From a virus: DNA of 64,000 nt. The DNA lies in IMG/VR virus record IMGVR_UViG_3300010352_001575, positions 1 to 64,000 of that record. One strand, written 5' to 3'. Position numbers and translations under genes: made by a program. The notes under the pieces were generated by a model. It had not been told where the DNA came from. It ran no database searches and saw only the letters and a program-made list of their open reading frames with translations. Shown in pieces: positions 13,528 through 32,133 of this stretch (position 1 is its first letter; each line of letters opens with the position of its first letter).

Positions 13528-13531
13528 ATGA

Positions 13532-13712: not shown

Positions 13713-13717
13713 AAATC

Positions 13718-13939: not shown

Positions 13940-13949
13940 ATAAATCAAA

Positions 13950-14020: not shown

Positions 14021-14026
14021 TTAAAG

Positions 14027-14400: not shown

Positions 14401-14401
14401 A

Positions 14402-14804: not shown

Positions 14805-14812
14805 TTAAAATT

Positions 14813-14921: not shown

Positions 14922-14926
14922 AAAAT

Positions 14927-15472
14927 TTAAGAATGTTTGGCAACTACAGCCTTGCAGAACTCAATAAGCTCCGCATCTGAAAATTTGTTTTTAGCATGGT
15001 TAGCCATCAATGCGACAAACCTTATATTGTCACGCGTATAACCCTTACTTGAATCGATTCTATCCACACTAGCCCGATTAAAAGCAGAACTACCTCTTTT
15101 GATCCACGTCAAAGGTTTTACCATATGCCATCCGGTAAGAGGACATATACCTTTCTGAGCGCCCCAAGTCTCTTTCAAATCTTCTGGAGTTATCTCGCAC
15201 AACTTGCCGCTCTTTGCGCAGCGCTGTTTGATGATGTGCACATAGTATCTGAAAGAAGTTAGCTCGGTAGAAGTCTTTGAATTGACAGGTCTCGTATGTT
15301 TAGTGTACATATATTTGCCTAGCCAGACCGGTTTGTGCCTGCGTAAGCCTTTTCCTGCACACTTACGACCACAAAATAAGTGCTTACCCTTTTTTACATG
15401 AGATCGATTGTATTCTGCGATAGACCTCACAAAATTCCTACCACACTGCTCGCACTTCAACGTTATATGCAT
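14927..15472 (-). CDS. HNH-like (His-Me finger) homing endonuclease
   Basis: N-terminal CEQCG..FCGRKC; QKGICPLTG, SVDRIDSSKGYTRDNIRFV..ANHAKN. Confidence 0.8.
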   Translation of the reverse strand: MHITLKCEQCGRNFVRSIAEYNRSHVKKGKHLFCGRKCAGKGLRRHKPVWLGKYMYTKHTRPVNSKTSTELTSFRYYVHIIKQRCAKSGKLCEITPEDLKETWGAQKGICPLTGWHMVKPLTWIKRGSSAFNRASVDRIDSSKGYTRDNIRFVALMANHAKNKFSDAELIEFCKAVVAKHS

Positions 15473-15477
15473 AAATT

Positions 15478-15866
15478 TGGTGGACTCGCCGACCATCGCA
15501 GATCGGGTCCGACATAGGACGTCAATGGGTTTCTACGTTCATATCCAGTAAGAGTGTACTGGAACACATAGGGCGCCTAGACTCTGGCGCCTCCACCAGT
15601 CTCGGTGTTACTTGACGGAGTACGAGACATATCCGTCCCAAGGCCCTTTCTTCAATACCGGGAATGTGAAAGGACTGAAAGACTTCCCGGCGGGTTGCTT
15701 AGGCTACCGCGAGCTCCGTTTTTGCAAACGCACGCTCTACGATTTCAGAAGCCTGATTCAACAGTGAGTTGTCAGTTATTGTTTGACCCGGTTTTAGCGA
15801 GGCCCGTGTCATCCTCGGAACGCTGCCCATCAGCTTCAGCTACGCCGTCGAAACTAATTCGAGCCC
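15478..15866 (-). ncRNA. ssrA: tmRNA; tag (A)DNSLLNQASEIVERAFAKTELAVA
   Basis: 5' GGGCTCGA..TTTCGAC, 3' GAGTCCACCA with G3-U70, ATAACT-G resume context, tag ORF 15773-15699 ending LAVA-stop. Confidence 0.92.
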
Positions 15867-16229
15867 ATAATGACCCGCCGATTTGCGCTTGTCCTTGCGG
15901 ATAGAGGCGTGGCGGGTACTGTTGCCAACACAGAACTGCCACCGCGCAGAAGTTTATTGCCCTCGCCTGTTGGCTGGTCTGGCAAGTAATCATCGCGGCA
16001 TATAAGGAAATCGCTGTTTAATACTGGTACAGCGATCGAAACCTTTGTAGGTTCCTACCAATGGCAGGAACACCGCACCCGTTCCCGGCTTTCCACCGGG
16101 GTCTCTCGTTTTAGTGCCTGAGCGTATGAGCTCCTCTACTAAACGGGTATCGTGTAGAGCGTCTTCTTAGGCGGTTTTCCCGCCTGACGAACCCACGAAC
16201 AAATTGTCAATTACTACCCTACAACTAAT

Positions 16230-16258
16230 ATCTTATAAAATTTTCCGGTGCGTGTCAA
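16230..16258 (-). promoter_or_regulatory. sigma70-like promoter heading the RNA island
   Basis: TTGACA-17 nt-TAAGAT with AT-rich upstream element. Confidence 0.8.
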
Positions 16259-16318
16259 GCATTATTTTCAGAAACTCAAAATAGTCAACACACCTATATT
16301 TAATAATTTTATATAATA

Positions 16319-16747
16319 TTATACTACCTTTATGTAAATCTCTTTCGGGTCTGCGTGCGTGCATAGCTCGTTACTGGCGTCGTATTTTAGTCCAGTTCCT
16401 GGCTTGATGTGCTCACAGCTATCTTCTGACTTAGAGATTTCTTTTCCGCAAACCTTACAGACAACACTAGCCGTGTCTATCGTATATCCGCTAACGATGT
16501 ACTTTGGGTTTGGAACCTCGATAAGACCAATGATTGCAGCCGGCTTGTCTTTAACCGCGGGCTCGAAACTAGCAGATATTATCTTGCCAATAACAGGACC
16601 AGCTACTGGACCAGCTGCCCAGGGCGGGTTGTCCAGCTTAACAGGCATTCCAACAAACTTCTCAGCAGCTTCTTTCAGTGCGTCGTCAGACCAGTAATTG
16701 TTGCCGAAGTCTGGCCCAGATGTCATTAGGACTACTTCTGTTAACAT
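16319..16747 (-). CDS. hypothetical protein, possibly related to phage prohead proteases
   Basis: ALKEAAEKFVGMPV..IGKII..CKVCG..CEHIKPG pattern recalled from phage protease-like proteins. Confidence 0.45.
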   Translation of the reverse strand: MLTEVVLMTSGPDFGNNYWSDDALKEAAEKFVGMPVKLDNPPWAAGPVAGPVIGKIISASFEPAVKDKPAAIIGLIEVPNPKYIVSGYTIDTASVVCKVCGKEISKSEDSCEHIKPGTGLKYDASNELCTHADPKEIYIKVV

Positions 16748-17046
16748 TTCTTTCCTCCGTCCAACAGTTCTAGCTCTATGGTTGTTCTAGGCGGGCCGAT
16801 AGGCATGCGGCGTGCCATATTCCTATATGTGCTTGTAATATCCTGATCAACCTGAACCTGTGTGCAATACGCTGAGTACGTGTGGTTATCACTCCCCCAT
16901 CCTTATTAGCTCCACCCCATGCTCGTGAACTTTATGCACCTTCCATGTTCTGACATTAACCAAGTGGCCATCGTACAATATGTCTTTTCCTAATGCGAAG
17001 TCTCTGGCGAAATACGCCTGCCAGGCGCTTATTGGAATGTGTATTA

Positions 17047-18063
17047 TCATTTCGCAAACCCTACCTCACTAGATTTTAAGTACTGGGAGCTATCCGCGCT
17101 GGCCTTATTCTGCTCCCTCAGCCTCTCCAGAGTTTCCTCGAACGAGTTATCCAAGCACTTCACGCTGATAACTAGCTCTGCAAGCGCGGCAAACGATAGC
17201 CCGTTTGTTTTTTCTACCCAGGTGTCTAGGTCTCCATTGGATATCTTGAGGCGCTGCTCTAAGTACACTCTGCGTATATCTGCGCTCGGGCATCCTATTT
17301 TTATTATGCGATCAAAGCGCCGCGGCCGAGCTATGATACGCTTGGATACTTTTTCAGGGAAGTTGGTAGTAGCAATGTTCAGCACGTGGTCCACAGTGTT
17401 CTCGCCGTCCAGTGCTGATAACAAGCTCTCTTCTCCGTACTCGTTGCACAGCGCGTCGATATCCTCAAACACGCAAACCAAAGGCCGGTGGCACTCCACA
17501 GCCCTAAAGGCGGTCAGCGCGCGAGATACCAACCGAGTGTTCTTCACCAGTAGCACTATGCCCTTATCTGCCACTAGATTTTTGATAACTTGCTGGACGA
17601 TACAGGTTTTCCCGCCTCCGGGAGGTCCCCATAGCAGCATACCCCTTCTGTGCAGGAAGCCATAGTGCTTGAAATCTTTTTCTCGATTCCAGAATTTCTT
17701 GATCTCGTTGAAAATGGCAGCATCAGTACCGTTCTCGAAGGCAATGATATCGTCTACATTTAAGTCCTGCCACTCGAACAATGGTTGTCCCGCATCGGTT
17801 TGTCTTGCGACAGTATACGCACCTGGCGATAGCGTCTTCCTAGTACCTGGAACCGCTATGAATGTATTGCCACCGTCTCCCATAGCCGCCCACTGGCATA
17901 GCTTGGATGTGCTTGTCTCAGTTCGCTCGCGTTTGGGTGACGAAAGTTCTATAGGTGCTTGTCCACAAGTAGCACTAACCGATTGGCTCTCTGTACCAAA
18001 CGCGGCTAAATCAACTCCCAGATTTTCCTTTGGGAACCTTACTTCTTTGGGATCTTGTTGCAT
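17047..18063 (-). CDS. AAA+ ATPase
   Basis: RRGMLLWGPPGGGKT, VFEDID, IATTN and RPRRFDR motifs. Confidence 0.9.
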   Translation of the reverse strand: MQQDPKEVRFPKENLGVDLAAFGTESQSVSATCGQAPIELSSPKRERTETSTSKLCQWAAMGDGGNTFIAVPGTRKTLSPGAYTVARQTDAGQPLFEWQDLNVDDIIAFENGTDAAIFNEIKKFWNREKDFKHYGFLHRRGMLLWGPPGGGKTCIVQQVIKNLVADKGIVLLVKNTRLVSRALTAFRAVECHRPLVCVFEDIDALCNEYGEESLLSALDGENTVDHVLNIATTNFPEKVSKRIIARPRRFDRIIKIGCPSADIRRVYLEQRLKISNGDLDTWVEKTNGLSFAALAELVISVKCLDNSFEETLERLREQNKASADSSQYLKSSEVGFAK

Positions 18064-18324
18064 TTTATCTCCAGTGCTGCTTTCTATGGTTTAAGAACTT
18101 TCTTGTCAGCTCTTGCGGGCTCTTCTTTGGTGGTATTGACTTCTGGGCCGTCTGCAGCTCTTTATCGCTATACTGGGATGGATAGCCTCTAACTTTGTCG
18201 CCTGCTCTGACAGACATATATTCCCCAGTAGAGGTATGCGCGCAGGTAATATCACAGTATCTGCATTGAGAGCTATTCACAGACTGACCAGTCTCAGGAC
18301 AGTTCCAGCGATAATCATCCATAG

Positions 18325-18765
18325 CTATGTCCACAAGTCCCTAAAGTATTTTCCGAAGTACGCATAAGCTTTGTTTTTGCGTTCGAAGTACGCGGTTCTT
18401 GCCGCCTCTTCGTGCGGATAATCCCAGCTATCCTTTAGATCTTCTTGCATAACCCACAAGATCTCTTTCAATATCTTGGTCCACTCCTCGGAAGTTATGT
18501 CCGCCGGATAGCCGCAAGATCTGCGTACCATCCACTTGAGTGGGCCTATCGTCTTCTCGCAAATGTGCGAGTATAGCGACCACCAAGCCACCTCGTTGAA
18601 ACCAAGTTTTATCAGGTCGGATACGGCCTTAGCACGACGAGTAGGCTTGTCTATTTGCCGGCAGGTACTGTCTATCTCTTTTTGCCAGTATAGAGTCTTA
18701 GGTATCTTGGTCCCGCGCGGGACGAATAGTTCTATCTTCTTCCAATTGTTTTTATTTAATTTCAT
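18325..18765 (-). CDS. hypothetical phage protein
   Basis: 146 aa, ends FGKYFRDLW. Confidence 0.65.
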   Translation of the reverse strand: MKLNKNNWKKIELFVPRGTKIPKTLYWQKEIDSTCRQIDKPTRRAKAVSDLIKLGFNEVAWWSLYSHICEKTIGPLKWMVRRSCGYPADITSEEWTKILKEILWVMQEDLKDSWDYPHEEAARTAYFERKNKAYAYFGKYFRDLWT

Positions 18766-19185
18766 GGCAAGTCCTCGTCATAAGTTGGTAAGGTATTAGG
18801 GTCTATTTTGAGTATAAGTCCTTGTTTTAGTAATCTCTGATACGCGCCTTTTTTAGGCCATTTAGGGTACTTACGCGACGTAAGGAACCACCTTTTAATA
18901 ACCTCATCCGATTTTCCTGCTAGCATCTTTTTGAAATCGGCTTTAGTTGCCTTTATTTTTCGCATTTTAGTATCACCTTCTTCTTAACCTCAGGTATCAA
19001 TCCGCTCGGATGTCCCTCAGATATTTCTTTGCAATCTTTCATTGCTGTCTTCTTAGTGCTGAATACCGGCAGGAAGCCAATACATCCATTGGCGTAATTC
19101 TCTGCCTTGAACGTAGCAGGAAAAGGCAATCCCGCAAAACAAAATTTCGACACTATGCGATGAGATACATATATCTTTGGTAGTT

Positions 19186-19671
19186 TCATTTCTGTGCTCC
19201 AATAAAGTTACCCGTGGATACAAATGTGTTTGTCGCGCTAAGCTCGTCAACAGTGGCCCAAGGCCTGCGGCACTCTTTGTTAGCGCACTCTTCCTTGTTC
19301 GCTATCTCCACCTGCAGCGATTCGGTCTTGGTTTTGCAAACGCAGACTGACTCTTTCTCGTTGCCTGTGCACTTCCACTTAGCAGTGCAGCCGAAGAACT
19401 TCGGCATCGCTGGCTTGGTTTTGGCTAGTCTCTCCTTCTCCGTTTGCTGAACAAAGTCGTAATGGGACATTTGCTCAGATATTGCGCCGTCTTTCAGAAC
19501 AACAACATCAGCGCTGAAGTACATATAAGCACCAGTCTTCTTGAGCAGCTCTTCCTTGCTCTTATATATTTCTACTTTTTTTAGTGTTGCGTAGGATGTC
19601 GCACTACCCCCTTCGGGATAGTAAGTAGTAGGCATACAAGCCGCAAACACTAGCAATATCGTTGTATTCAT
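19186..19671 (-). CDS. putative lipoprotein
   Basis: hydrophobic N-terminus with FAAC. Confidence 0.55.
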   Translation of the reverse strand: MNTTILLVFAACMPTTYYPEGGSATSYATLKKVEIYKSKEELLKKTGAYMYFSADVVVLKDGAISEQMSHYDFVQQTEKERLAKTKPAMPKFFGCTAKWKCTGNEKESVCVCKTKTESLQVEIANKEECANKECRRPWATVDELSATNTFVSTGNFIGAQK

Positions 19672-20093
19672 TTCACGCTCCTAAATTCTTCTGGGCCGTT
19701 AATAAAATCAGCACAGAAGTTATTCTTAAACTGGGCGCGGGCGGTGTACCCGTCGACAAGCACACCCTCGTTTACGTGGTGATACAGCATCACCTGATCA
19801 AATGCCTTGCAAACCTCAGGCATATTAACCGATGCCTTAATCCGCACCTCTGTAGGTTTTTCTATGGTTATCAAGTCCCAGGAATGGCTGGTCCTGCTGA
19901 CTTTTAGATACCCAGCAAAGGTCGCAGAACTTGACACCACAGAGCCAAAGACTTGGGATGCAGTCAAGTCACCTTCCAGGTTACTAAACGCTTTTGTAGA
20001 CTTATGACTACAGGCTACATATCCCGCCACTACCGCGATACCTATCGCAACCAGCATCGCATAAGCATCCAGCATGTTTAGCTTTCTCATCAT
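19668..20093 (-). CDS. membrane-anchored hypothetical protein
   Basis: N-terminal TM segment. Confidence 0.6.
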   Translation of the reverse strand: MMRKLNMLDAYAMLVAIGIAVVAGYVACSHKSTKAFSNLEGDLTASQVFGSVVSSSATFAGYLKVSRTSHSWDLITIEKPTEVRIKASVNMPEVCKAFDQVMLYHHVNEGVLVDGYTARAQFKNNFCADFINGPEEFRSVK

Positions 20094-20602
20094 ATCTCCT
20101 TGTTTTCGTACGACTCGTCTAACATTGTTCCATATATCGGCCGGATATGCCGGTTCTTAACGCTTGGTTCGGAAGTATTCACAAGCTTAGAACTTGTATC
20201 TGTTTCGTTTACTGGTTCAGCAACTTTGGGCTGATAGCTACTTTTATTTTCGCATTTATCACACTCTTTACCCCAGGGGTCTGAGAAGTGAGCACACTCG
20301 TGGCACAACATAGCGCGCACCATTTTGTTAAGGTCAACAATATGGTCTGCCGTTTCCAGTACCCGCCTTGCCTCGTCCATAGCCTTGGCAAAGTAGTGCC
20401 AATCAACACAATCACCATCGCAGCAAGTTTCAGGACCGCAGATATGGTCAGGAGGCTTGGGGCCGTAATGCTCAGCAATCCCTATGAGACTTTTACAGAC
20501 CTCTACCAGACTTTTAACTGTTGCTTCCCTGTACTTACGAACGCGGGCGCAAGATGCATCCGCACAATTTTCAGCCCCAACACAAGCACACCCATCGTTC
20601 AT
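20090..20602 (-). CDS. Cys-rich hypothetical protein
   Basis: 170-aa ORF with ATGA overlaps. Confidence 0.6.
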   Translation of the reverse strand: MNDGCACVGAENCADASCARVRKYREATVKSLVEVCKSLIGIAEHYGPKPPDHICGPETCCDGDCVDWHYFAKAMDEARRVLETADHIVDLNKMVRAMLCHECAHFSDPWGKECDKCENKSSYQPKVAEPVNETDTSSKLVNTSEPSVKNRHIRPIYGTMLDESYENKEI

Positions 20603-20919
20603 CTCTTCCTCCGCTTAGCTTCTTTTTCGTACTTGGCAACCAGCTGGTCTACCCGCTTTTCGTTAAACTCAACCCTCGCCCAGTCCTCTAGTGCGTGAAA
20701 AACTTCGTGCATTAGTACCTGTGCCACAAAGTACGGTAATTCTTTTGGAGCTATGTCTTTGGACTTAACCAGTCCTAAAAGATTGCCAATATCCAGTCCG
20801 ACCAATGCCTTGCCTGTGCTAGATATCCTTTTGCCGGCCTGGTAAAACGCGAACCCAGGACTGAAGTTTGTTTGGTATACTCGTATCTTTATGGATGGCT
20901 TTAGCTTCTTTTTCACCAT
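20599..20919 (-). CDS. small protein with HExxH motif
   Basis: VLMHEVFHALE. Confidence 0.55.
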   Translation of the reverse strand: MVKKKLKPSIKIRVYQTNFSPGFAFYQAGKRISSTGKALVGLDIGNLLGLVKSKDIAPKELPYFVAQVLMHEVFHALEDWARVEFNEKRVDQLVAKYEKEAKRRKR

Positions 20920-20924
20920 GCCTC

Positions 20925-21488
20925 CTATTTGTTAGCCCGATATACCACAATATCGCTATGGTACAAAGTTTTCCTCGCCGAGTCAAGATTGTAGGTGAAG
21001 ATATCTACGCTGTTCTTCAGCCTGACATTCATAGTATCCTCGACACGATAGCAAGTACCAGTCTTTATGACGCACAGTATGTCCCCGTAGCCTACTAGCT
21101 TGCGCACTAACAGGTCCTGAGATACGGCGATGCTCCCCTCATACACTAGCGTCCCGCGCGCGCCTAGGTTCGGTGTACTATCCGTTTCCTCGACGCGGTT
21201 GGTATATGCTGTCACCCTGATATTGGGTATCGTTTTGACGGTATAACCAGTCTTGGCCGACAGGCGCTGCAATGTCAATATGTTTATATCGGCAGTCTGA
21301 GAGAATACAGGCACCGCTGGTACCTGTCTTTTGGCGCTTATAACTCCGGCAAAGTACACAGCACAGCCGAATATAGCTATAGCTACTGCTTGGGTAGCTT
21401 TCTTGCGCACTGTGAGCCAGGTGTGCTTTCTCCGCCAATGATGCTTGTGCCGGTGCTTTATCACTGCCTCAGTTTTAGGTTCTTCCAT
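20925..21488 (-). CDS. 3D-domain (Asp-Asp-Asp) cell-wall hydrolase-like protein
   Basis: TM anchor, VTAYT..ETDSTP, IAVSQDL, YRVEDTMN and VDIF motifs. Confidence 0.8.
   Translation of the reverse strand: MEEPKTEAVIKHRHKHHWRRKHTWLTVRKKATQAVAIAIFGCAVYFAGVISAKRQVPAVPVFSQTADINILTLQRLSAKTGYTVKTIPNIRVTAYTNRVEETDSTPNLGARGTLVYEGSIAVSQDLLVRKLVGYGDILCVIKTGTCYRVEDTMNVRLKNSVDIFTYNLDSARKTLYHSDIVVYRANK
20958..20986 (-). promoter_or_regulatory. sigma70-like internal promoter
   Basis: TTGACT-17 nt-TACCAT with the shared GAAAACTTTG spacer. Confidence 0.55.
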
Positions 21489-21497
21489 AGTACCTCC

Positions 21498-22361
21498 CTA
21501 GTCTTTAGCCACTTCTGATTCTGTAGCAAGCGTATAATCCCATTCCCCACGAGTTCCAACTAGGCTAAACTCGTGCCGTTCAGTTTCTTCAACCTTGTAT
21601 ACTGCTACTGATTCTCCAGGAGACACCCAACTTCTGTGATCATTGTATGCTATTCGCTCGGTAGATACATACCGAGACATTCTGCCCCGTACTATTATGT
21701 TATCTCCGGAATACTTTGCTGGATCTATTTTCAACAAACACACTAAGGTACCTCTGCCGTACAGCACCCCGTCGTACTCTCGTATGGGGTGGTCAGATAT
21801 GTACGCGATATGTTTGCTCACATACCGAGCCAACTGGTGCCCTCTAGGGACATCAGCCACTTTTGAGTTAATGCAGCTATCCCACTTGGCAAACTTATAC
21901 CTTAAGTCGTTTAACTGATCACGTAGCCACCTAGCATTAACGAGCTTGTCTTTTTTAAGCTCGGACCGCGGCACCTCATACAGAACCCATACTGATACTT
22001 TATCTGAAGAGTTGGTGACATACTGCCCAGCTCTTCGCAGCTTAGAAGCGCTCAGATAAGACACCTGCCGTCGTGTAAGACTAACCGACGGAGCGGCGGT
22101 GTTGGTAGTTTCTCTGGATTCCTCGAACTCTATAGTAGTCTGGATATAGTCAGCTGCTTGTTTTTTGACTTCCAGAATAGCTTTGTCAACCGCCTTGTTA
22201 ATATCTGCTGCGTCAGACCCAACCCCCACAAAGTAGACATACGCCTTTGTAGGGGGCGGCGCGCTATTAACCCAATCCGGCAGAGGGCTAGCTACTAGGT
22301 TCTGCCCACATACCGGCACTGCAGTACCCAACAATAAGATAGCTAGCCATCTGTTTATCAT
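21498..22361 (-). CDS. secreted protein with LPP20-like N-terminal domain
   Basis: signal peptide, PDWV..YFVGVG..A..A pattern. Confidence 0.6.
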   Translation of the reverse strand: MINRWLAILLLGTAVPVCGQNLVASPLPDWVNSAPPPTKAYVYFVGVGSDAADINKAVDKAILEVKKQAADYIQTTIEFEESRETTNTAAPSVSLTRRQVSYLSASKLRRAGQYVTNSSDKVSVWVLYEVPRSELKKDKLVNARWLRDQLNDLRYKFAKWDSCINSKVADVPRGHQLARYVSKHIAYISDHPIREYDGVLYGRGTLVCLLKIDPAKYSGDNIIVRGRMSRYVSTERIAYNDHRSWVSPGESVAVYKVEETERHEFSLVGTRGEWDYTLATESEVAKD

Positions 22362-22362
22362 A

Positions 22363-22992
22363 CTATTCCTGTTTAGTAGCAGTTGCGCTAGGCGCAGCCG
22401 CTGGTTTGTTGAGGTTGGCCCACGCCTTCTCCAACACTATCTCCGCCTTTGCGTCCTGGGCCGCCCTTAGCGCACTGATGGCAGACTCGTACACCCGAGC
22501 CCTGGCTTCAGCGTAGTCTGCATTGCTAATGCTAACCAACGCATAGCAATTGTATGCATACTTAACCCCATCTTCGAGCTTCTCTTCCTGCTGCTCGTAG
22601 TAGGTGTCTTCCAGACGGATACCAGAGACATCTATGTTCTCGGACACCTTCACAATAGCGCTACGCACGTTTGACCCACCACGGTCCGTGACATTATTAC
22701 CAACCATAGCACTCCCGAACTCAACCCGGATCTTCTGCTTTATTTGCTCAACCAACTCTTTCTCTGCTTCTGCCTTGGCTTCGCGAATGCCTAGTGCCAT
22801 ATCCAGCCTATCACTAACAATGCCACGATAGAACATCTTCTTATCCTTCTCGAAGTACGGCGCCTTGGCCCAGGAAGGTATTGAACCGCCCGGGAACGAG
22901 GCTACAACTTTGCGGCTTCCAACCGGCACGCTAGTACAAGCGGCCAACCCCAACAGACTAACGCACAACAATCCAACTATTGTTTTATTCAT
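22363..22992 (-). CDS. LPP20-like lipoprotein
   Basis: LAAC lipobox, PSW, A..EA..ELVEQI..YALV pattern. Confidence 0.65.
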   Translation of the reverse strand: MNKTIVGLLCVSLLGLAACTSVPVGSRKVVASFPGGSIPSWAKAPYFEKDKKMFYRGIVSDRLDMALGIREAKAEAEKELVEQIKQKIRVEFGSAMVGNNVTDRGGSNVRSAIVKVSENIDVSGIRLEDTYYEQQEEKLEDGVKYAYNCYALVSISNADYAEARARVYESAISALRAAQDAKAEIVLEKAWANLNKPAAAPSATATKQE

Positions 22993-23441
22993 ATTTTGTC
23001 CTTTGTGTTCCTGGCTAATTTTTCTGCCTCGATTGTGTACTTGTTGTATATCTCCTCATTGTCTATTGGAAGAAATACACAACAAGTGTCTTTGATATCG
23101 CGAATGTTGGGTATGTCGCCTATCCTCTTACCTTTTGCGTCTATGATTTTCCACATAACGGCATACCGGAATTCTTTCCAAGTATTAGGAGATACAATAG
23201 CTGCAGCTCTTTGTACTCCGATTGGTATGCCTTTATCGGCATCGCTTACGACAATATCCGCCACTATAGTGGCGAATATTGACAGCTTGGCTGGGTCCAT
23301 TATGGCTTGGCTGACTATGCGGCGAGTTTGTTCTAGTTTTGTCAGCTCGGTGTCCCCAAAACAAACCGTGCTATAGTCAGCATAGTTATTCCACGGGTGC
23401 AGCGTATTTTTAACATCCGACTCCCACTCCTTTTCCGTCAT
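22989..23441 (-). CDS. hypothetical protein
   Basis: 150-aa ORF in the gene chain. Confidence 0.65.
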   Translation of the reverse strand: MTEKEWESDVKNTLHPWNNYADYSTVCFGDTELTKLEQTRRIVSQAIMDPAKLSIFATIVADIVVSDADKGIPIGVQRAAAIVSPNTWKEFRYAVMWKIIDAKGKRIGDIPNIRDIKDTCCVFLPIDNEEIYNKYTIEAEKLARNTKDKI

Positions 23442-23829
23442 TTTGCCTCCTCAGACTTATTCAGTTCAGACTGGTCCAGCTGAGTCTGGCCAGTATACGC
23501 GTTCTCTTTCAAATCTTCACTTCCCTCAGGTGTTTCTTTCACATCTAGCAGCCCTCTGTCGTTAAGGTACTCTCGGGCTATCGCCCACGACTCATCAGTC
23601 TCCGGCGCCGTAGTAATAACCTGGTAGAACTTCTTGCCCTTTATCTTTCTCCTCGACTTCATGCACAAAGATCTATGACCTTTGGAGATAAAGATATTGC
23701 AAACATCCAGAGCCACCTTCTGGTCGAATGCGTACAAAGCCACCCGGGATGGGCCTGATGATTTTTGCATCTTGAACTTCGGTTCGTCGAACACCTCGTG
23801 CAGCTGTTTTTCAGTATTAGTATCCATTA

Positions 23830-24285
23830 CTATGCCTCCTTGTAATCTGGCCTTCCGCAATAAATGCACTCTTCTCCGTCATGTCCTCGCTCGCTGTCAA
23901 ACACGCAGCGACCTATTGGGCTCTTCCTGCATGTCTTCCAAAAATCAACATGGTCTAGTGTTTTTGGAAGACCACCTATTTCAACTAGCTTTGTTACTAT
24001 CTCCTCCATGTCTGCGAACGGCTGCATAGTAGAAAACCCGTCCGATTTCTTCATTGCAGCAGTATGCTCTTTGCTGGCCTTTTTGAACTTGTTCCATAGC
24101 TCTACCACAGCAGGTTTAGCTACTGGAGGTTTGGACTCTATAAACTGAACGCCCCAGATGCTTTTAGGCGTTATTGTAACGCCTCCGCGGTCATTCTGAA
24201 GCACAATAGCGAACTCGTCTGATGTAGATTCAGGATGGGCGTGGTTAATCGACTCCAGGCACCCTATTAATTCCCACAGTTTCAC
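23830..24285 (-). CDS. hypothetical protein with C-terminal C..SPIG.C..C..CG motif
   Basis: motif shared with ORF 61246-61515. Confidence 0.6.
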   Translation of the reverse strand: MKLWELIGCLESINHAHPESTSDEFAIVLQNDRGGVTITPKSIWGVQFIESKPPVAKPAVVELWNKFKKASKEHTAAMKKSDGFSTMQPFADMEEIVTKLVEIGGLPKTLDHVDFWKTCRKSPIGRCVFDSERGHDGEECIYCGRPDYKEA

Positions 24286-24977
24286 TTTACCTCCTTCACT
24301 TCTTTCTTATTTTCCAGCACCCGAGGGGGTCGTATCCACTTTGTATACTTGCACTCGCTTATCTGGTTTCTCTTTATCAGATCTACGATGTACTCAACCG
24401 ATGGGAATGTCTCGTACGGAATGCTGAGTATGTTAACACCAGTCTTCTTGTATTCAGACAAAAAGTCAAGATAATGCGCGCGCAGGTCCTGCAAGTAAGA
24501 TAGTGGTATGTTCTTCTCTGACTCTCTGCCGCGGCTCTGTATGCGCTTCAACGCCGTTTCCGCAGAGCAATCTAGGTATATCATTATCTCCGGGTAAGCC
24601 AGGTCGCGTAACGCCAGAGCATCAAACATATCCAGGTAGGTATTCAAATCCCTATCCGTTATGTGCCCGGCTTCGTGCAGCATTCTCGCAAAAATACAAT
24701 CTTCTGTGATGCCGCGATCTCCTATTGCTCCAGGAATAGACCCATTAGCTATCCGGGTAATCAGCTCTTTATGCTGACGGAACCGGTGATTAAGCAGCCA
24801 CATTTGCATAATGGCCCCATACTTTTTCATATCTTTGTAGAAGTCCGCTAAGTATGGGTTGCCAGCCACTGCTTCGTACGCTACCTCCCAGCCCAGCGCC
24901 TCTCCCAGCCGCTTAGCCAGGCTAGACTTGCCGGCTCCGATGAGCCCTGCTACCACTATATAGTTTTTAACATACAT
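24282..24977 (-). CDS. deoxynucleoside kinase
   Basis: GLIGAGKS, NPYLADFY, DR..ED.IFA and RIQSRGRESE motifs. Confidence 0.9.
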   Translation of the reverse strand: MYVKNYIVVAGLIGAGKSSLAKRLGEALGWEVAYEAVAGNPYLADFYKDMKKYGAIMQMWLLNHRFRQHKELITRIANGSIPGAIGDRGITEDCIFARMLHEAGHITDRDLNTYLDMFDALALRDLAYPEIMIYLDCSAETALKRIQSRGRESEKNIPLSYLQDLRAHYLDFLSEYKKTGVNILSIPYETFPSVEYIVDLIKRNQISECKYTKWIRPPRVLENKKEVKEVK

Positions 24978-24978
24978 A

Positions 24979-25254
24979 TTAGCTCCTAGTCGTCTTGGTA
25001 TCTATTACTTTGTCTACTAGCCTAATCCCGTCCAGGCAACACTTTAACATAACTGCATGCACTTTGTCAGTTACTTTGCCAGTGGTGCTGCCATCCGCCT
25101 GCTCGTAAATTATTGCAAACGCCGCGCAGTTGCTAGAGCACAACAGATTTGGGTTTCTCCAGCACCGGCACTCTGCTCCGCTATGCACTAGCTGGTAATG
25201 CTTGCCAGCGCTCTCAGCTACCCCGCTTTTTATGTATGTAAGTAGTTCTGCCAT
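24979..25254 (-). CDS. Cys-containing hypothetical protein
   Basis: 91 aa, GGAGA RBS. Confidence 0.6.
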   Translation of the reverse strand: MAELLTYIKSGVAESAGKHYQLVHSGAECRCWRNPNLLCSSNCAAFAIIYEQADGSTTGKVTDKVHAVMLKCCLDGIRLVDKVIDTKTTRS

Positions 25255-25270
25255 ATCTCCTCTTTATTTT

Positions 25271-25298
25271 GCCGGCCGGAGGCCATCCCCCGGCCGGC
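25271..25298 (-). other. strong GC hairpin at the 3' end of the pentamer array
   Basis: GCCGGCCGG/CCGGCCGGC 9-bp stem; no downstream U-tract. Confidence 0.7.
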
Positions 25299-25309
25299 TG
25301 ATATTCACC

Positions 25310-25825
25310 ATCACGATACCATACTTCAGGCTACTATACCGCAACTGTACAGCTCGGCGCGCAGCTATGCTGCAACCATACTCTGCCATGTGTCGTCTTG
25401 TGATACTATCACGATACTTCGACTTGCGTTGCGCTACCTTGCCATTGCAGGGCCAAACCTGGCCACGGTTCACGATACGCTACTATTGCTATATGTGACA
25501 TTGCAATACCATACCAATGCATCTCATAGCTTAACTATGCCGATACTTGGCGATGCTATGCCTCACCACTACGATGAACAACCGCGCCATACCCTTACCC
25601 TAGCTTACGAAACCATACAATTACGATACTGTGATTTGCACTTCGTCACCTTACTAATACTGCGCCCCACAAAAGACCACTACGCATGACTACACCACTA
25701 CGCGACACAGCGCGGCCGTGCATTACCGCAACAGCGCCTAAACATACAGTGAGGTACGCTACCTCTGCCATACCCGAGGATACGGTGCTTTACTGCCGCG
25801 GGACGTTAGTGTACGGGACCATACT
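25310..25825 (-). repeat. non-coding array of NGY-NN pentamers in 16 units of 5n+1 nt (candidate guide-RNA array)
   Basis: manual parse: 100 pentamers, 82 match NGYNN, 97 have a pyrimidine at position 3; one extra base closes each unit. Confidence 0.85.
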
Positions 25826-25850
25826 ATCACTTTGCGCTCTCGCTCGACCT

Positions 25851-26564
25851 CTATTTCTTGCCCTTCGCTTCCTTCATTGCAGCCGCCTCTTTTGCCATTT
25901 TCTCAAGACGAGTGCCGTAGAGTTTTCTAATCTTGGCATTGTTAGGCATTTCTTCTATCGTATAGGTGAACCTACCGTAGGAACCATTACGGAACTGTCC
26001 CAATCCCTGCAGTTCTCCATAGTCCAGCAGTTCCTTGATGGTATCCAGAGAGAAGTCCTTATCCTTACTAGGCAGCACACGGAGCATCAAGTCTATCTCA
26101 GCGCCGGCCTTAACCACATCCGACTTGGCCAGGAACACCCGGGGACCCCTCGGCCCTTCAGAACGAAGCGAGCGAGACATAGTGCCATCCGCTTCTTTGA
26201 TGTTCTTGCCATCACGGGTCAGATACAGCTTGCGCGGGTTAACGAAGAGGTACATATCAACCTTGGACTTCACTGCCTTCATACCAATCATCTCTGACAA
26301 GGCTTTTGCAGATGCCTTCAAGAAGCCGCGGAAGACATAGTCGAAAAGGAACACGCCCTTATCGTCCTTCATAAACCCAGTCCAGCCCTTTTCTTCCAGC
26401 TGCTCCACTGACTCGATCTCCTGGTCGGCCTGTTCCTGAGTGATGATCCCCTTGTCTACTGCTTCTTTCTGAATGTGGGTCCCGAAGATGTCCTTGTTCT
26501 TGGGAACTGTTCCCAGCATATCTTCCGTCATTGTGATCTTTACTTTGTATTCAATTAAGTTCAT
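25851..26564 (-). CDS. stand-alone Cas7-like RAMP-family protein
   Basis: N-terminal strand Y.VKI.M...MLG, FRGFLK helix, C-terminal Gly-rich loop GLGQFRNGSYGRF; AGGAG RBS. Confidence 0.75.
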   Translation of the reverse strand: MNLIEYKVKITMTEDMLGTVPKNKDIFGTHIQKEAVDKGIITQEQADQEIESVEQLEEKGWTGFMKDDKGVFLFDYVFRGFLKASAKALSEMIGMKAVKSKVDMYLFVNPRKLYLTRDGKNIKEADGTMSRSLRSEGPRGPRVFLAKSDVVKAGAEIDLMLRVLPSKDKDFSLDTIKELLDYGELQGLGQFRNGSYGRFTYTIEEMPNNAKIRKLYGTRLEKMAKEAAAMKEAKGKK

Positions 26565-26588
26565 TGCTTTCTCCTAGTTTTTTTTTGT

Positions 26589-26897
26589 TTACTTCTTCTT
26601 TTCCGGCAGCGATGTAGATGTTATGACCCACGGTCCCTGCCAAGGCTGCGGGTAGTACGGCTGCGGCCAAACATACGGCTGTTGAATATACGGTATTGCT
26701 ATCGTTCCGACTCCGCTGCAACCGGGACATATAACCTTAATGCCATCTAGTCGCGTCTGCGTCCCTGTACCCCCGCAGCACGGACAGGTACATTGTTCGT
26801 ATACTGGCGGTTGGGGCTGTATATAGCAATTGCTCGTGCCGGGTATTGGCTGCGCTGGCCCTGCCGAATTTGTTGCTTTCGCATCTTTGTTTTCCAT
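26589..26897 (-). CDS. Pro/Gln-rich protein with DnaJ-like CxxCxGxG zinc finger
   Basis: CPCCGGTG and CPGCSGVG. Confidence 0.6.
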   Translation of the reverse strand: MENKDAKATNSAGPAQPIPGTSNCYIQPQPPVYEQCTCPCCGGTGTQTRLDGIKVICPGCSGVGTIAIPYIQQPYVWPQPYYPQPWQGPWVITSTSLPEKKK

Positions 26898-26907
26898 AGC
26901 TGCTCCT

Positions 26908-26937
26908 ATTCTACTAAGTTTTAGGTACCTGTGTCAA
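26908..26937 (-). promoter_or_regulatory. sigma70-like promoter upstream of the RAMP unit
   Basis: TTGACA-18 nt-TAGAAT. Confidence 0.65.
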
Positions 26938-27134
26938 CGTTTACCTATGCGCTTCAGTGCTTCGGCTGCCTCCGCATTCTCCATTGTTAGCGTTGCCCGG
27001 CTGCCGGCTGCTCTGATTTGTTCGTCTAGCAATACCTGAATTCTCTGGTCAACCCACGGCAGGAACCCAGCACCGCAGCGCTTGCCTCTATCATTCACGT
27101 ACTTCTTAACTTTTGTTTTCTGGATGAACGCCAT
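26934..27134 (-). CDS. putative histone-fold protein
   Basis: 66 aa; IQKTKVKKYV..KRCG..long helix..RATL pattern resembles bacterial histone folds. Confidence 0.5.
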   Translation of the reverse strand: MAFIQKTKVKKYVNDRGKRCGAGFLPWVDQRIQVLLDEQIRAAGSRATLTMENAEAAEALKRIGKR

Positions 27135-27420
27135 TGGCTTTCTCCTCTACTATGACTTTGCCGGGAATCACTACCTCTTTAGGCTTTAACGCAGCTCGTA
27201 CCTGGTCAAAGTCTATTTCTATCAGTACGGTGTCTAAGTATTCATACCCTGCTTTTGAATACTTTTCTTTCTTCTCGGCCATGTATTCTATGCCACCACC
27301 GTCAGACATAGTAAACTCATCGCAAACCGCTAGCGCTTCTGGAACTTCTTGACCTTCGTAATTCTCTGCGAGCAGGCCAAACAACACATACAGATACGCC
27401 TTTCCGTTTATTTCTTTCAT
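27106..27420 (-). CDS. hypothetical protein
   Basis: 104-aa ORF. Confidence 0.6.
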   Translation of the reverse strand: MKEINGKAYLYVLFGLLAENYEGQEVPEALAVCDEFTMSDGGGIEYMAEKKEKYSKAGYEYLDTVLIEIDFDQVRAALKPKEVVIPGKVIVEEKANGVHPENKS

Positions 27421-27613
27421 ATCGGCTCTGTCTCCCCCTTGCCTTTGTTATAGTCTGTCGGCTTACGATACACAGCGCCAGTGTCTGTATCAAACTCCGC
27501 ACCACAATTCTCGCACTGCTCGAATCCAGTGTGTCGGTAAGCGTGGTCTGGGTGTCCGCATACCGGGCATACCACCTTCGGCATATACGATCGCTTCTTT
27601 CTGTGTGCTGCCT

Positions 27614-28603
27614 TTACTCCCATATAGGTACCTCCGTAGTTTTGGACACATAGGCCAGCATCTCGGCCTGTTTCTTTTCTTCAGCAATTTCTCTGAGTAT
27701 TGCTCTGCCTTGCTCGGTTATAGACCGACCGCAGACTGATTTGCGAGCGTAGCCCTTGGCGAACAAGTACGGCTCGTACGATTTGGCAATGTACTTAGGA
27801 TCTTCGTTTATACACAATGACATCATAGACAAGCCTACCGGCTGGCTAGCCTTGTCCAATAGGTTGAGGATGCGCAGGTCCACATCATCTAAACCATTGA
27901 TGTACACCCCGAAGTATGGCAATAGTAAGCATAGCTGTTCTGCATTTTTAATATGGTGCGTGTTTAGAAATGTAGACAGCAAGCCAATTGCGCTAATCGC
28001 CCTACGAGGTATGTTCTTGCATCGCTTCGCCACTGTGCGATATGTTTCTAGCAAGGCCAGGTTGGTATCGGGGGGGTTATTGTCGCAGCAAGAGCCTATG
28101 GCTCTTAATAATATCTCCGCAATACCGTCCTCAGTATACGGGGGTACCTCTATCCTAACCCCGAACCTATCCACCAACGGCCCAGCTAGCTCCTGCTTTT
28201 CGGTAGTCGCTCCTATTACCACCACCTTTCCATCGCAATGACTAGGCGTGTTGTCTCGTATAACCTGGTTGTCTTCCATCAGCACGTACAGCCGCTCTAA
28301 CAACTTAGGGTTAGCTGAGTGTATCTCGTCCAGGAACACGATGCACCCAGGAGGACCTATATGGTCTATTTTTGCCAGTATATCAGGGTACTCTACCGCC
28401 TCTCCGATAAACTCAGCTAAGGGCAGCCTAGACTCGTTGGCGATAATCCTAGCTAGCGTTGTCTTGCCGGTGCCTGGCAGCCCGGTTAGCAACACATGCG
28501 GCGTAGCCATCAGGTCTGTTCTAGCTGTTATAGCTACCGTTTCCGCCAGGGTCTTAACCCCGGCGGCGCCGGTATACTCAGCTAGCGATGTTGGTCTGTA
28601 CAT
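27614..28603 (-). CDS. RuvB-like Holliday junction branch-migration ATPase
   Basis: RPTSLAEYTG, HVLLTGLPGTGKTTLARIIANE, FLDEIH, IGATT, PLVDRFG, YEPYL and GR..T motifs. Confidence 0.85.
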   Translation of the reverse strand: MYRPTSLAEYTGAAGVKTLAETVAITARTDLMATPHVLLTGLPGTGKTTLARIIANESRLPLAEFIGEAVEYPDILAKIDHIGPPGCIVFLDEIHSANPKLLERLYVLMEDNQVIRDNTPSHCDGKVVVIGATTEKQELAGPLVDRFGVRIEVPPYTEDGIAEILLRAIGSCCDNNPPDTNLALLETYRTVAKRCKNIPRRAISAIGLLSTFLNTHHIKNAEQLCLLLPYFGVYINGLDDVDLRILNLLDKASQPVGLSMMSLCINEDPKYIAKSYEPYLFAKGYARKSVCGRSITEQGRAILREIAEEKKQAEMLAYVSKTTEVPIWE

Positions 28604-28607
28604 ATGG

Positions 28608-29072
28608 TTATCCTTTCTTGGGGAAGTACCTTATCTTCAGCCTGGGCTCTTCAATAGGTATCAACTTGCAGTGGCGCTTGATAGCCGGAACAGAGACAGC
28701 TAGCATCTCAAACCCTGCTGGGTTAATATCCACTATGTTCAGCAACTCGTCCAACGGCAGACATGCCGCTATGCCTTTTTTATTATACTGCAGTTCCTCG
28801 CCATCCTCGATAGTCACAACCGCCGAATGCTCGTTATCCACGTAGTTGTCCAGGCCCAGGTCGTCCATAACCTCGCCTAGCTTTCTATGGTCGTTAGCTA
28901 TTTCCTCGCCCAGTGCGGCATACGCGCCATACTTCTCTCTCAGCGCCTTGAACATTTTGCGAACCACATCCGTCTTCGCCAATAGCTCGCGGGCATCGTC
29001 CTTCGTCTTCGGGGTTTTGTTCTCCGGCTTAGTAGACTCATTCCCATCGTCGCCATATGCGGTCTTTTTCAT
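28608..29072 (-). CDS. hypothetical protein
   Basis: 154-aa ORF, GGAG RBS. Confidence 0.65.
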   Translation of the reverse strand: MKKTAYGDDGNESTKPENKTPKTKDDARELLAKTDVVRKMFKALREKYGAYAALGEEIANDHRKLGEVMDDLGLDNYVDNEHSAVVTIEDGEELQYNKKGIAACLPLDELLNIVDINPAGFEMLAVSVPAIKRHCKLIPIEEPRLKIRYFPKKG

Positions 29073-29080
29073 ATTGTCTC

Positions 29081-29608
29081 CTATAAGCGTAGGTCTATCT
29101 GCTCATCTTTTGGTACTGCGTTCAGTTCATCTTCTGCTAAGTACTCTAGCGAGGCGTCTTTTGCATACAATGCTTTCTTGGTAGCTGTCATCAGTTCGGC
29201 TAGATCTGTGTTAGATATGAACAGATCTTTGTACGACGAGACGCGCACTATATCGAACTTCAACTTACGCAAGTCTGCTTCCATATCGGCCGGAGTGGAT
29301 ACCACCATCACCAGGTTTTTGCCGTACAGCGACAGCGAGTAGAAACACCCGCTACCCAACTTGGGAAACTGGCGTAATACCATATCGCCGATATCGCCCC
29401 AGGTCTCTACTTTGATTCCAGCCTCGCAGATGTCGTACATTTCTTGTATGTCTTTGAGCATTAACTTAGCTGTCTTGGGGAAGCCCCGAAACAGCTTGGC
29501 GTACTTTTCAAACTCGGCCGTTGCCTGCGCTGCCGGGAATGTCTTAGTAGCAACCAGCTGGCCTAAGCTGATGCGGGGGTGTTTTCTGAGTAAGTCCTTT
29601 AGTTTCAT
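29081..29608 (-). CDS. hypothetical protein
   Basis: 175-aa ORF. Confidence 0.65.
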   Translation of the reverse strand: MKLKDLLRKHPRISLGQLVATKTFPAAQATAEFEKYAKLFRGFPKTAKLMLKDIQEMYDICEAGIKVETWGDIGDMVLRQFPKLGSGCFYSLSLYGKNLVMVVSTPADMEADLRKLKFDIVRVSSYKDLFISNTDLAELMTATKKALYAKDASLEYLAEDELNAVPKDEQIDLRL

Positions 29609-30194
29609 ATCATTTCTCCCACTGGGTTATCTTGAATTTGCCTATCATCCAGCCTTTCTTTGTTTTCTTCAACTTAGCCAGCGCTGCATTGTTCGGAGAA
29701 AAGCATTGGATCTCTGCGAACATAGCATACGATTGGTACTTGTCCGGGACTGCAGTAGCCCTCTCACAATGCTTTCTAGCAAGACACGCCGTGTTTGCAC
29801 ACATTGTTATATCAGGCATTTTTAGAGTACCTCGGCTTGACATGCATTATCGCCTTGTTGGCCCGATAACAAACCCACAGCATAGGGTATTCTTCCTTCC
29901 ACAGGCTAACAGCGCAGTCCGGGTCAGTATCACCGCACAGTTCGTCCATAGCGGTTGCTATATCCTCGAGCACATTAACCAGGTACTTGACTTGTGACTT
30001 ATAGTTTGGTTTGGTCATTAGGCTTCCTCTTGAAGAAGTTTTTTACTTCCACTAACTTGTACGCCTTAATATCCTCTCTATTTATCTTCAGCAGCAAAAG
30101 CTCTTGTTCGGTGTATGCGCTGAACGGGGCACAATAGTTAACGTCAAACGCAGTACCATACAAGCTATTTTTATCATAACCGAAAACATATAGA

Positions 30195-30788
30195 TTATTG
30201 CTTGGCTTTTTCGGCTTCTTCTGCTTTGCGCTTCTCGACATATTCTGCATATTTTATCTCTCCGTACTGATTTGGCCTGACTTCAAAGTAGTCAAACAAT
30301 GCCTTGATGAACCGCTCTGTATACGGCGCGCGCCAGATATGTTTCAGGTAAGTATGCGCATCACTAGAATAATGGTAATGATTATTCTTGAGATGTAGCT
30401 CTGCATCCTTCTCCGTCAAGAACATACCGCGCTCTTCCCACACCTGTTGCATAGCGTGCTCGTGATAATTCTCTTTCTCGTCTTCCGGCAGCTCGTCGTA
30501 TTCTTCTGGGGTTAGCTCGCTATCGTCTTCAGTAGAATAATAGACTGTGTGGCTTTCATCCCCGCAGCCTTCCTCAGTCGGTACTAGCTTGCTAGTCCTA
30601 ATAACGTAAAAGAACGGCCAGGCAGTACAGCGATTGTCTTGCTTAGACATCTCATCAAGAAACTCGATGATGATATCCTTGTCTGACATCGTTTCGTTGG
30701 CGTCAACGGAACGATGTGTCTGCTTAGCATAGAACGCCGCTTCTGTTTCTTTAGAGATCTCCTCTGTCGGAACTTCTTTATTTTCCAT
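30195..30788 (-). CDS. hypothetical phage protein
   Basis: QDNRCTAWP and FLTEKDAELHLKNNHYHY motifs recalled from phage proteins. Confidence 0.65.
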   Translation of the reverse strand: MENKEVPTEEISKETEAAFYAKQTHRSVDANETMSDKDIIIEFLDEMSKQDNRCTAWPFFYVIRTSKLVPTEEGCGDESHTVYYSTEDDSELTPEEYDELPEDEKENYHEHAMQQVWEERGMFLTEKDAELHLKNNHYHYSSDAHTYLKHIWRAPYTERFIKALFDYFEVRPNQYGEIKYAEYVEKRKAEEAEKAKQ

Positions 30789-31422
30789 TCTTAACCTCCG
30801 GTTTGGCTTTCTCTGGTGCGTAAGTTAACAGGTTTCCCGCCTTGCGAGCTATAGCATCATCTATAGCTACAACCCTATCACCGTCTCCGCACAAGAACTC
30901 GTGAGCCCTGACAGCAGCAGCGCTAAGGCTCTCGTACAGGTCGGAGAAGAACTTCTCGCGCTCTTCGGTCCAGTCCACTACGCGCTTGCCAGGGTCAGTG
31001 TCTACTAGGGACAGGAAGTCATCATAGCTCCTGCCACCTGCACTATAGTTTTTCCGACCATCGACAGATTCCTCTTCGCAAACTCGGTAGTTTAGCTTAA
31101 CACCAGTCGCGCCGCTATGCCCGCAGTATAGCGTTGTCACTGTGTGCTTCCCAAAACCGTCATCTCCGCCACTAGCCTCCAACTCGTACACAATCACCTT
31201 TCTAGTAGCTGTCTTCTTGGCTAGTATTGCTATCTGCAGTTCCCCTATTTGCTTGTTTAACCCGTCTATGGTTTTGTCTTTCAGGTTATTCACCCCGGCT
31301 AGCAAGACATACTTCTCTGGGATGACAAACATAAACTCACCAGACTTGGTTAGGAAGTTAATCGGGTATGATTCTCTATCTCCCAACTTCCACATAAACT
31401 GAGTTTTTCCAACTTTAGGCAT
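30778..31422 (-). CDS. hypothetical protein
   Basis: 214-aa ORF, GGAGA RBS. Confidence 0.7.
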   Translation of the reverse strand: MPKVGKTQFMWKLGDRESYPINFLTKSGEFMFVIPEKYVLLAGVNNLKDKTIDGLNKQIGELQIAILAKKTATRKVIVYELEASGGDDGFGKHTVTTLYCGHSGATGVKLNYRVCEEESVDGRKNYSAGGRSYDDFLSLVDTDPGKRVVDWTEEREKFFSDLYESLSAAAVRAHEFLCGDGDRVVAIDDAIARKAGNLLTYAPEKAKPEVKNGK

Positions 31423-31433
31423 ATATCTCCTCG

Positions 31434-31925
31434 CTATACCAGCTTTTCCCAGCCGGTCTCGTTCTGTATCAGGATGTGTGCTATAGCCACATCGTACCTA
31501 TACTTCCTATTTCGTTCCAGGTCGAAGACCGTCACCTTGTCAGCACCGGAATCTAGCACAACCCGGCCCTTGAACTCCCTGGTATTTCCGCTAATCGTTA
31601 TCTTGATGCGCCCTTCTCTCAAGATGCCTATAGGGCTAGGGTTGTTCTCAACCCTGCGATTAGCTATGTCCCCGCGTATCTCTACCCGGTGCTTGAATAT
31701 CTCGAACAAGCTATAGTACTGGCGTAGGAACACGCGCGTCTTGTTAGCTACGTGGTGCCACTCCTCTGGTTTGCAATACCTGGCTATCTCTTTCGGGCCC
31801 ACGCTGGTTATCAGCTTTTTACGATTGAGATAATCCGCCATATCCATAGCCGTTTTAAGCTGCTTGGCCTCGGCTATAATAGCATTTCTGGACCGACCTG
31901 TCAACTTGTTTGTCATAGAGGTCAT
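31434..31925 (-). CDS. hypothetical protein
   Basis: 163-aa ORF; SRNA..A and EWHH motifs. Confidence 0.65.
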   Translation of the reverse strand: MTSMTNKLTGRSRNAIIAEAKQLKTAMDMADYLNRKKLITSVGPKEIARYCKPEEWHHVANKTRVFLRQYYSLFEIFKHRVEIRGDIANRRVENNPSPIGILREGRIKITISGNTREFKGRVVLDSGADKVTVFDLERNRKYRYDVAIAHILIQNETGWEKLV

Positions 31926-32133
31926 TTGGCTGTAGGTTTATCCTGTAGCATGCCTAGCGCTTCGGCCAGTGATTCTCTTTCTATGTGCTGCATAGTAGCA
32001 ACCTGAGCGGCCATGGTTTCTACTATAGCTAAGTGCAGTATTTGCGCCCACGGCGGAGCCCCACAACTACCTAACGCTGTGTGGTTTCTAGCCACCACTT
32101 CGTTGAATTCTGCAGTAGTCATATTATCTCCTG

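Follow-up and report, generated by a model that had tools for sequence, protein, structure and literature searches.

The closest described counterparts of the locus analyzed here are the VIPR systems, in particular the type II VIPR of Escherichia phage SUSP1 (10.64898/2026.04.26.720920, together with the accessible parts of 10.64898/2026.04.26.720927 and 10.64898/2026.10.15.759431). As set out in the first of these reports and in the accessible part of the second, one protomer of the type II protein sits on each RNA pentamer, five nucleotides of RNA correspond to three of DNA, and silencing proceeds without cleavage (10.64898/2026.04.26.720920; 10.64898/2026.04.26.720927). The accessible text on the SUSP1 structures describes a thumb that flips every third target base and a G-loop in which D177 reads the first G, W178 the second G, and R179 the pyrimidine (10.64898/2026.04.26.720927). 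Published VIPR targets, as far as the available parts of the sources list them, are satellites, prophages, and other vipr genes (10.64898/2026.04.26.720920; 10.64898/2026.10.15.759431).

Type II is not the only layout in print. The methods of the 2026 preprint also list YNNNG, NNNGG, and NNNNG repeats, as well as “staggered” arrays (10.64898/2026.04.26.720920; fig. S18 legend), and its text models all types, the YNNNG/staggered ones included, as a fixed trinucleotide plus NN. For the YNNNG/staggered arrays, the available portion of that text offers neither a targeting rule nor targets nor an experiment. The COMPASS survey reports 21 clusters of period-5 non-GGY arrays beside Vipr-like folds; in its accessible part, these noncanonical arrays are modeled as three constrained plus two free bases, with no targets given (10.64898/2026.10.21.760802). 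Data S3/S4 aside, the available texts of these four reports (720920, 720927, 759431, and 760802) contain neither a recorded third base nor phage guides against host defence genes.

How does the present locus compare? It lies in a 64,000-nt stretch of a viral genome (hereafter the window) and is a member of VIPR, but not of type II. Like the YNNNG/staggered VIPR (10.64898/2026.04.26.720920), it has a lone RAMP gene without cas genes, and its pentamer array keeps only G and Y fixed, with guides that abut with a one-base offset. Since that preprint already lists YNNNG repeats and staggered arrays, neither the system nor the shape of its array is new. An earlier note on this DNA had proposed a VIPR-like system in a distinct NGY variant; the first part holds, whereas the free first base on which the second part leaned is covered by the listed YNNNG, NNNGG, and NNNNG types. 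With SUSP1, the locus shares the RAMP fold, the aromatic–Arg pair of the G-loop (W178-R179 in SUSP1, F191-R192 here), a phage-borne setting, five RNA bases per three DNA bases (for the window, taken from relatives), and the lack of a nuclease. The differences are as follows. SUSP1 guides count 9–16 GGY-NN units and carry a structured invariant 3′ tail, whereas the window's guides have 5–8 units and no tail per guide. In SUSP1, the GGY is fixed and its first G is read by D177; in the window, GGY is not fixed and the equivalent residue is Q190. The third base is skipped in SUSP1 but recorded in the guide here (as demonstrated in relatives), and SUSP1 has vap1, whereas the window has no conserved accessory gene. 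Lastly, SUSP1 targets satellites on either strand, whereas the matches of the window's relatives are all on the sense strand and in a host defence toxin gene. Class 1 CRISPR-Cas is related through its Cas7/Csm3 backbone (type VII Cas7, type III Csm3), which has the same fold as the window Vipr; however, the period of that backbone is six (according to 10.64898/2026.04.26.720920) rather than five, and the direct repeat–spacer array of class 1 systems is absent here.

Our main reading, to which we assign a probability of roughly 0.7, is that of a phage VIPR locus with an array of GY-NNN blocks, each of which would be a guide to 15–24 bp of double-stranded DNA and would block transcription there, likely including that of host anti-phage genes. 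The RAMP fold, the minimal locus, the pentamer array, and the viral setting were all found for the window itself, whereas the correspondence of three target bases to each unit comes from relatives only.

The vipr gene occurs once in the genome, a virus record of 177,741 bases whose two best matching sequencing runs are activated-sludge metagenomes. Its AlphaFold (AF2) model has a pLDDT of 94.7 and matches type VII Cas7 (Foldseek E 4e-9) and Csm3 (VIA-align Z 12.2, rmsd 3.5, 167 aligned), bearing out the earlier description of a 237-aa ORF with RAMP hallmarks. The C-terminal helix (residues 209–236) is an extension that most homologues lack. Pfam and PHROGs hold no known family for this protein, and 103 homologues were detected; the family is broad, as 2774 clusters (50% identity) match the Vipr profile, 990 of them at E 1e-30 or better. 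Two proteins, P0144 (458 aa) and P0165 (432 aa), each match the profile over two stretches and are possible tandem Vipr fusions. The relation to SUSP1 Vipr is distant: identity to the window Vipr is 17%, the family profile finds it weakly (E 0.019), and hhalign joins the family to it at 87.7% (E 3.4e-6) over the G-loop region only. In that region, Q190, F191, and R192 of the window Vipr align with SUSP1 D177, W178, and R179, and 158 of 169 family G-loops have Q at the position of D177, which would fit the loss of the first G. Elsewhere, the phage genome carries 29 tRNA genes, with a cluster at window positions 5206-13788 and beyond (those listed are all on the minus strand), and an exact 35-nt tandem duplication lies at 1545-1614.

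Table 1. Elements of the vipr locus, in window coordinates
Feature	Position	Strand	Basis or score
Sigma70-type promoter-like site, 11/12	26908..26937	minus	consensus match only
orf102, 102-aa ORF with CxxC pairs, between promoter-like site and vipr	26589..26897	minus	ORF list
vipr, 237 aa, single-RRM RAMP (Cas7-group fold) with thumb and G-loop	25851..26564	minus	ORF list, AF2 model, and structure matches
Guide array, 516 nt, 16 blocks R-(GY-NNN)k	25825..25310	minus	pentamer parser and block listing
Array block starts, in order	25825, 25794, 25763, 25727, 25696, 25655, 25619, 25593, 25567, 25541, 25515, 25484, 25443, 25407, 25371, 25340		
Units per block in the same order, k = 6,6,7,6,8,7,5,5,5,5,6,8,7,7,6,6			
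GC-rich 12-pair hairpin closing the array	25271..25298	minus	z -4.0

The array begins 25 nt past the vipr stop, on the same strand, and comprises exactly 100 pentamers; the position and length given for this tract in the earlier note are confirmed. A recount returned its figures unchanged, with G-Y in 82 of the 100 pentamers (18 units thus deviate from GY) and Y in 97, while the parser counts GGY in 30 of 104. We used a pentamer parser that permits register shifts between blocks. It scores the array at 90.6, against 9.8 ± 3.0 (maximum 26.2) for 300 dinucleotide shuffles, and in a scan of the 177.7-kb genome (1014 windows of 700 nt), the three best windows are the array and the next best reaches 15.2. 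Autocorrelation, which had been expected to peak at five, does so at lags 5, 10, and 26. Each passage from one block to the next shifts the register by exactly +1, 16 times in succession, because of which a fixed-register pentamer scan misses the array. What had been taken for one gapped guide is a series of 16 separate blocks, led by G in nine cases, A in six, and T in one. As had been stated, the tract has no credible ORF: the three same-strand frames are closed by 9, 12, and 12 stops, and shadow ORFs of 69–203 aa overlap it. Two 151-nt contigs of one RNA run overlie the array, which is not evidence of transcription. In line with the earlier statement that CRISPR repeats are absent, none of the window's 20 largest families of direct repeats is CRISPR-like.

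A related strain illustrates how such an array changes. Its vipr is nearly unchanged (4 differences in 494 nt), 87 nt of its array replace the 30 nt at 25787-25758 (+57 = 26 + 31), and after 25723, it diverges from the window array into a new six-unit block that follows the grammar. Turnover between strains thus proceeds block by block, with the 5n+1 phase kept.

The same grammar recurs beside homologues, where periodic tracts had been predicted. Arrays adjoin 67 of 80 viral and 47 of 79 genome loci (114/159 in total), lie on the vipr strand in 114 of 115 cases, and are present at all 80 of the Faecalibacterium-type phage loci discussed below. In 68 of 81 loci, 977 of the 1128 register shifts are +1. 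Of 676 blocks, 89% open with G, and the three N positions of middle units hold 0.09, 0.02, and 0.02 bits. Together, these features define the block as G-(GY-NNN)k, with k mostly 5–6. Between related blocks, substitutions affect 1% of G, 12% of Y, and 8.5%, 9.5%, and 9.5% of N1, N2, and N3. Some arrays show peculiarities of their own. Those of L221-L300 often have A as the second fixed base (GA besides GC and GT), and their blocks often terminate in the unit GC-AA-N. Locus L128 has arrays at 5273-5707 and 6599-6933, 0.6–2 kb from vipr, the distal one shifting by 4 and not by 1. Two vipr loci with identical array scores (L035 and L039) share one 150-kb viral contig, and L102/L103 are likewise two vipr loci on one MAG contig.

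The meaning of the blocks comes from a sister branch. We took 80 phage loci whose Vipr shares 88–99% identity with a Vipr encoded on a Faecalibacterium prausnitzii contig (~34% identical to the window Vipr), with 336 distinct blocks. One block common to 22 of these phages has 7 matches in 6 of 91 Faecalibacterium genomes, 3 of them exact, against 2 for the control, and four further unrelated blocks match within 400 nt of the three exact sites. The gene at these sites encodes RmrT and lies upstream of RmrA (PADLOC E 1e-20 and 4e-97), a pair known, according to the available part of its source, as the RosmerTA anti-phage toxin–antitoxin system (10.1101/2022.05.11.491447). Across 2.8 of the 2.816 Mb of one genome (G007), reading the GY-stripped triplets contiguously gives 18-base matches at 0–1 mismatch for 6 guides versus 0.5 for controls, five of the six being variants at one site; NN-only, skip-1, and skip-2 rules give no such match in that genome. 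Exact 15-base counts in G007 fail to separate the rules (2–4 each, controls 0–3, scattered). Clusters matched by at least three guide families in those 2.8 Mb are confined to the two rmrT genes, with 0 in 8 controls. The second of these genes (L449:665-1468; G007:C1:1100820-1101623) appears as two ORFs of 86 and 177 aa, both of which match the RmrT model.

Over eight RosmerTA loci, the rmrT zone is matched by 18 of 378 guides (control mean 1.4, maximum 3), these 18 being variants of about nine sites (nine start positions, two of which overlap) and not independent events; the other 360 are unplaced. All 63 rmrT-zone matches are on the sense strand, none of the 378 guides matches rmrA, and 41 of the 80 phage loci have an rmrT-type guide. 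GY-stripped blocks of these relatives are thus unbroken sense-strand copies of rmrT genes. Targeting of the mRNA was considered and rejected, as the guides have the sequence of the mRNA strand itself and not that of its complement. Blocks of a single array (L234) match two different rmrT genes. Both RosmerTA loci of G007 lie among ORFs that we take, from their sequences alone, to be relaxase- and recombinase-like, so these loci are probably on integrated mobile elements; the guides match the toxin and not the relaxase- or recombinase-like genes.

Mismatches are distributed unevenly along the rmrT guides: 1 of 54 in the first unit; 1, 3, and 7 of 78 each at N1, N2, and N3 of inner units; and 4, 6, and 16 of 18 in the last unit. 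The last base, mismatched in 16 of 18 cases, is therefore spare and not derived from the target, which yields the +1 shift. To avoid selecting on N3, we also searched two rmrT zones using no more than the two-base rule; among the 18 matches, the third base agrees at 82 of 100 positions, compared with 75 of 302 (~24%) in 20 controls. Information had been expected in NN only, yet in these relatives the supposedly free first base is the target base between two NN pairs.

Traces of contiguous DNA also appear when the blocks of the wider family are stripped of GY. N3 shows a neighbor bias with N1 of the next unit (z 3.7) despite the intervening GY, and a distance-two bias with N2 of the next unit (z 3.9), while the distance signal expected for N2 to the next N1 and for N1 to the next N1 is absent. 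The 1192 decoded blocks contain 28 copies of the Shine-Dalgarno hexamer, versus ~10 in each of four permutation controls, a count reached by 0 of 200 permutations per control, the N3-only shuffle included; its reverse complement occurs 0 times in the same blocks. In the 24 array-bearing loci with a Vipr at least 40% identical to that of the window, the excess is modest (9 vs. 4.5; 10/500). Some guides may aim at promoters. A count over 106 loci found the -35 promoter word 30 times in decoded blocks versus 14–17, mostly in distant loci.

Does the third base pair with the target, or is it a by-product of copying? We consider the two about evenly balanced. In the canonical alternative, pairing is confined to the two bases that follow GY; the third flips out, as G1 of SUSP1 does, and matches merely because the target was copied with GY inserted after each third base. 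This account has only slightly less than an even chance of being right. It draws on the 5:3 geometry, which equals that of the SUSP1 structures with their thumb flipping every third target base; on N3, which has the most inner mismatches; and on the first base, a purine at nine of nine rmrT sites and preceded by T at seven of nine, as a capture step might give. On the other hand, N3 changes no faster than N1 and N2 between related blocks (18, 19, and 20 of 197 at inner N1–N3 positions), and the guide common to 22 phages keeps every third base matched. Moreover, judging by ORF coordinates, the codon frame is kept at only five of nine sites, in contrast to type II, for which wobble alignment is reported, and no conserved enzyme gene is found beside vipr. 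Because a record in contiguous triplets keeps the ratio at 5:3, pairing of the third base need not change the geometry.

The window's own guides have yielded no target; their code rule is therefore carried over from the relatives, and the array very probably obeys it. The search for matches to the array's variable bases that the earlier note had proposed succeeded for the relatives' rmrT guides and failed for the window's 16 blocks. None of these blocks has a target in the phage's own genome. Three blocks were searched in public collections: one gave 0 matches in metagenomes as a 21-mer, one gave 0 in viral contigs as an 18-mer, and one, as an 18-mer, returned ~810 matches, of which 120 were examined, none with a second guide nearby. 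In the three-letter code and the defence target, the relatives offer a well-supported model, which for the window locus would apply by extension. We lean slightly toward defence genes being among the targets of the window phage. The competing account, which we regard as a serious but somewhat less than even prospect, is that its guides are directed at rival phages, prophages, or satellites and that only the Faecalibacterium branch targets defence genes. Published type II targets, in the accessible parts of the reports, are of that kind, the majority of guides are unplaced, and in-frame matches to other vipr genes exist for a few blocks of the gut clade. However, when ~2.8 Mb of vipr-bearing phage neighborhoods were searched with five to seven rules, the matches did not clearly exceed those of controls; the matches of gut-clade blocks to other vipr genes (13 vs. 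5.3 at up to one mismatch) are 15-mers only; and the single strong signal is a defence gene. Among the in-frame cases, blocks of L078/L209/L217 match vipr at L118:4280 and L123:4292 (15/15 and 14/15, one conserved motif) and are possible VIPR-against-VIPR guides.

Further searches, beyond rmrT, were mostly negative. When one gut block was scanned with gaps against viral contigs, 43 matches resulted, one of them 23/24 but at a ribosome-binding site. The contiguous scan of a conserved L203-clade guide gave 2 matches with wrong flanks, attributable to chance. Two further shared Faecalibacterium-clade guides gave 11 matches versus more in the control and 3 versus 1, with no clustering, and 10 SIR2 plus 5 (of 36) Abi_2 loci showed no clear excess (4 vs. 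0–3).

Around vipr, little is shared with other loci. No homologue of orf102 is found near vipr in 159 other loci, its Pfam and PHROG matches are all below threshold, and nothing marks it as a vap accessory gene. None of the window's vipr neighbors is common to other loci, and we found no conserved enzyme or accessory gene beside vipr. Across the family, the commonest neighbors are what we presume, by sequence alone, to be HTH, SSB, and RecT-like genes; Pfam and PHROGs reveal no cas genes among the vipr neighbors (the neighbors only). No Rfam match occurs in 20000-32000, and neither this search nor the conserved vipr neighbors provide a nuclease or ribozyme for separating the blocks. The promoter-like site likely drives orf102, vipr, and the array, judging from its fit to the consensus. 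Elsewhere in the window (1627-20989), repeat family D2 comprises eight copies of a similar 32-nt, sigma70-type promoter-like motif on the minus strand. The hairpin closing the array, described earlier as a 9-bp GC stem, does have nine perfect pairs, but the full stem counts 12 with G-U. It is not an intrinsic terminator because A, not U, comes after it, and terminator prediction lists none at this place; it is likely a protective 3′ end of the array. A fold of -15 kcal/mol or better within the next 50 nt is seen in only 18 of 107 homologue arrays.

That neither a nuclease nor a ribozyme for cutting the blocks apart turned up, and that 18 of the 100 units deviate from GY, might suggest that the array is one long RNA, or a decoy soaking up Vipr or Cas7 proteins, with block boundaries of no consequence. 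We judge this improbable: target matches stop at the last unit of a block, blocks of the L234 array match two rmrT genes, and strain variation preserves the 5n+1 phase. The blocks probably work singly. The overlapping shadow ORFs might hint at a coding repeat, or at low complexity arisen by chance, with no relation to vipr; this prospect is practically negligible, being already refuted by the parser score and the same-strand arrays at homologues, and the stops in all three frames also count against it.

In our preferred reading, with GY-NNN blocks as guides, vipr and the array would be transcribed together from the promoter-like site at 26937. Each block would consist of a lead purine followed by (GY-NNN) units, with the final base of the last unit not derived from the target. 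By analogy with type II, Vipr would polymerize with one subunit per pentamer, holding GY and presenting the free bases, and each block would bind the template strand of a gene and block RNA polymerase, silencing again being assumed from type II.

As the relatives' guides are unbroken copies of an anti-phage toxin gene, these phages likely switch off host defences by RNA-guided DNA binding. Published VIPR is defined by a skipped third base and by phage-versus-phage conflict; the present branch records, in the slot of the published G, the base that published VIPR skips, and its sole validated target is a host defence toxin. If the third base is read, this would be a second VIPR code, with 15–24 specified bases from a guide of 26–41 nt. 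If it is a footprint of copying, guide synthesis would be templated, a mechanism absent from the accessible parts of the VIPR papers. More tentatively, with odds somewhat below even, one may envisage a very large VIPR branch with a gap-free code, in which every target base is paired and GY looped out, guides are acquired by copying host DNA with a GY per triplet, and anti-phage systems are silenced in a multiplexed, CRISPRi-like manner. Were this true, it would amount to an RNA-guided, reprogrammable anti-defence system with an undescribed acquisition route. The simple decoding could also serve to link uncultured phages to their hosts and to find defence genes from guide matches.
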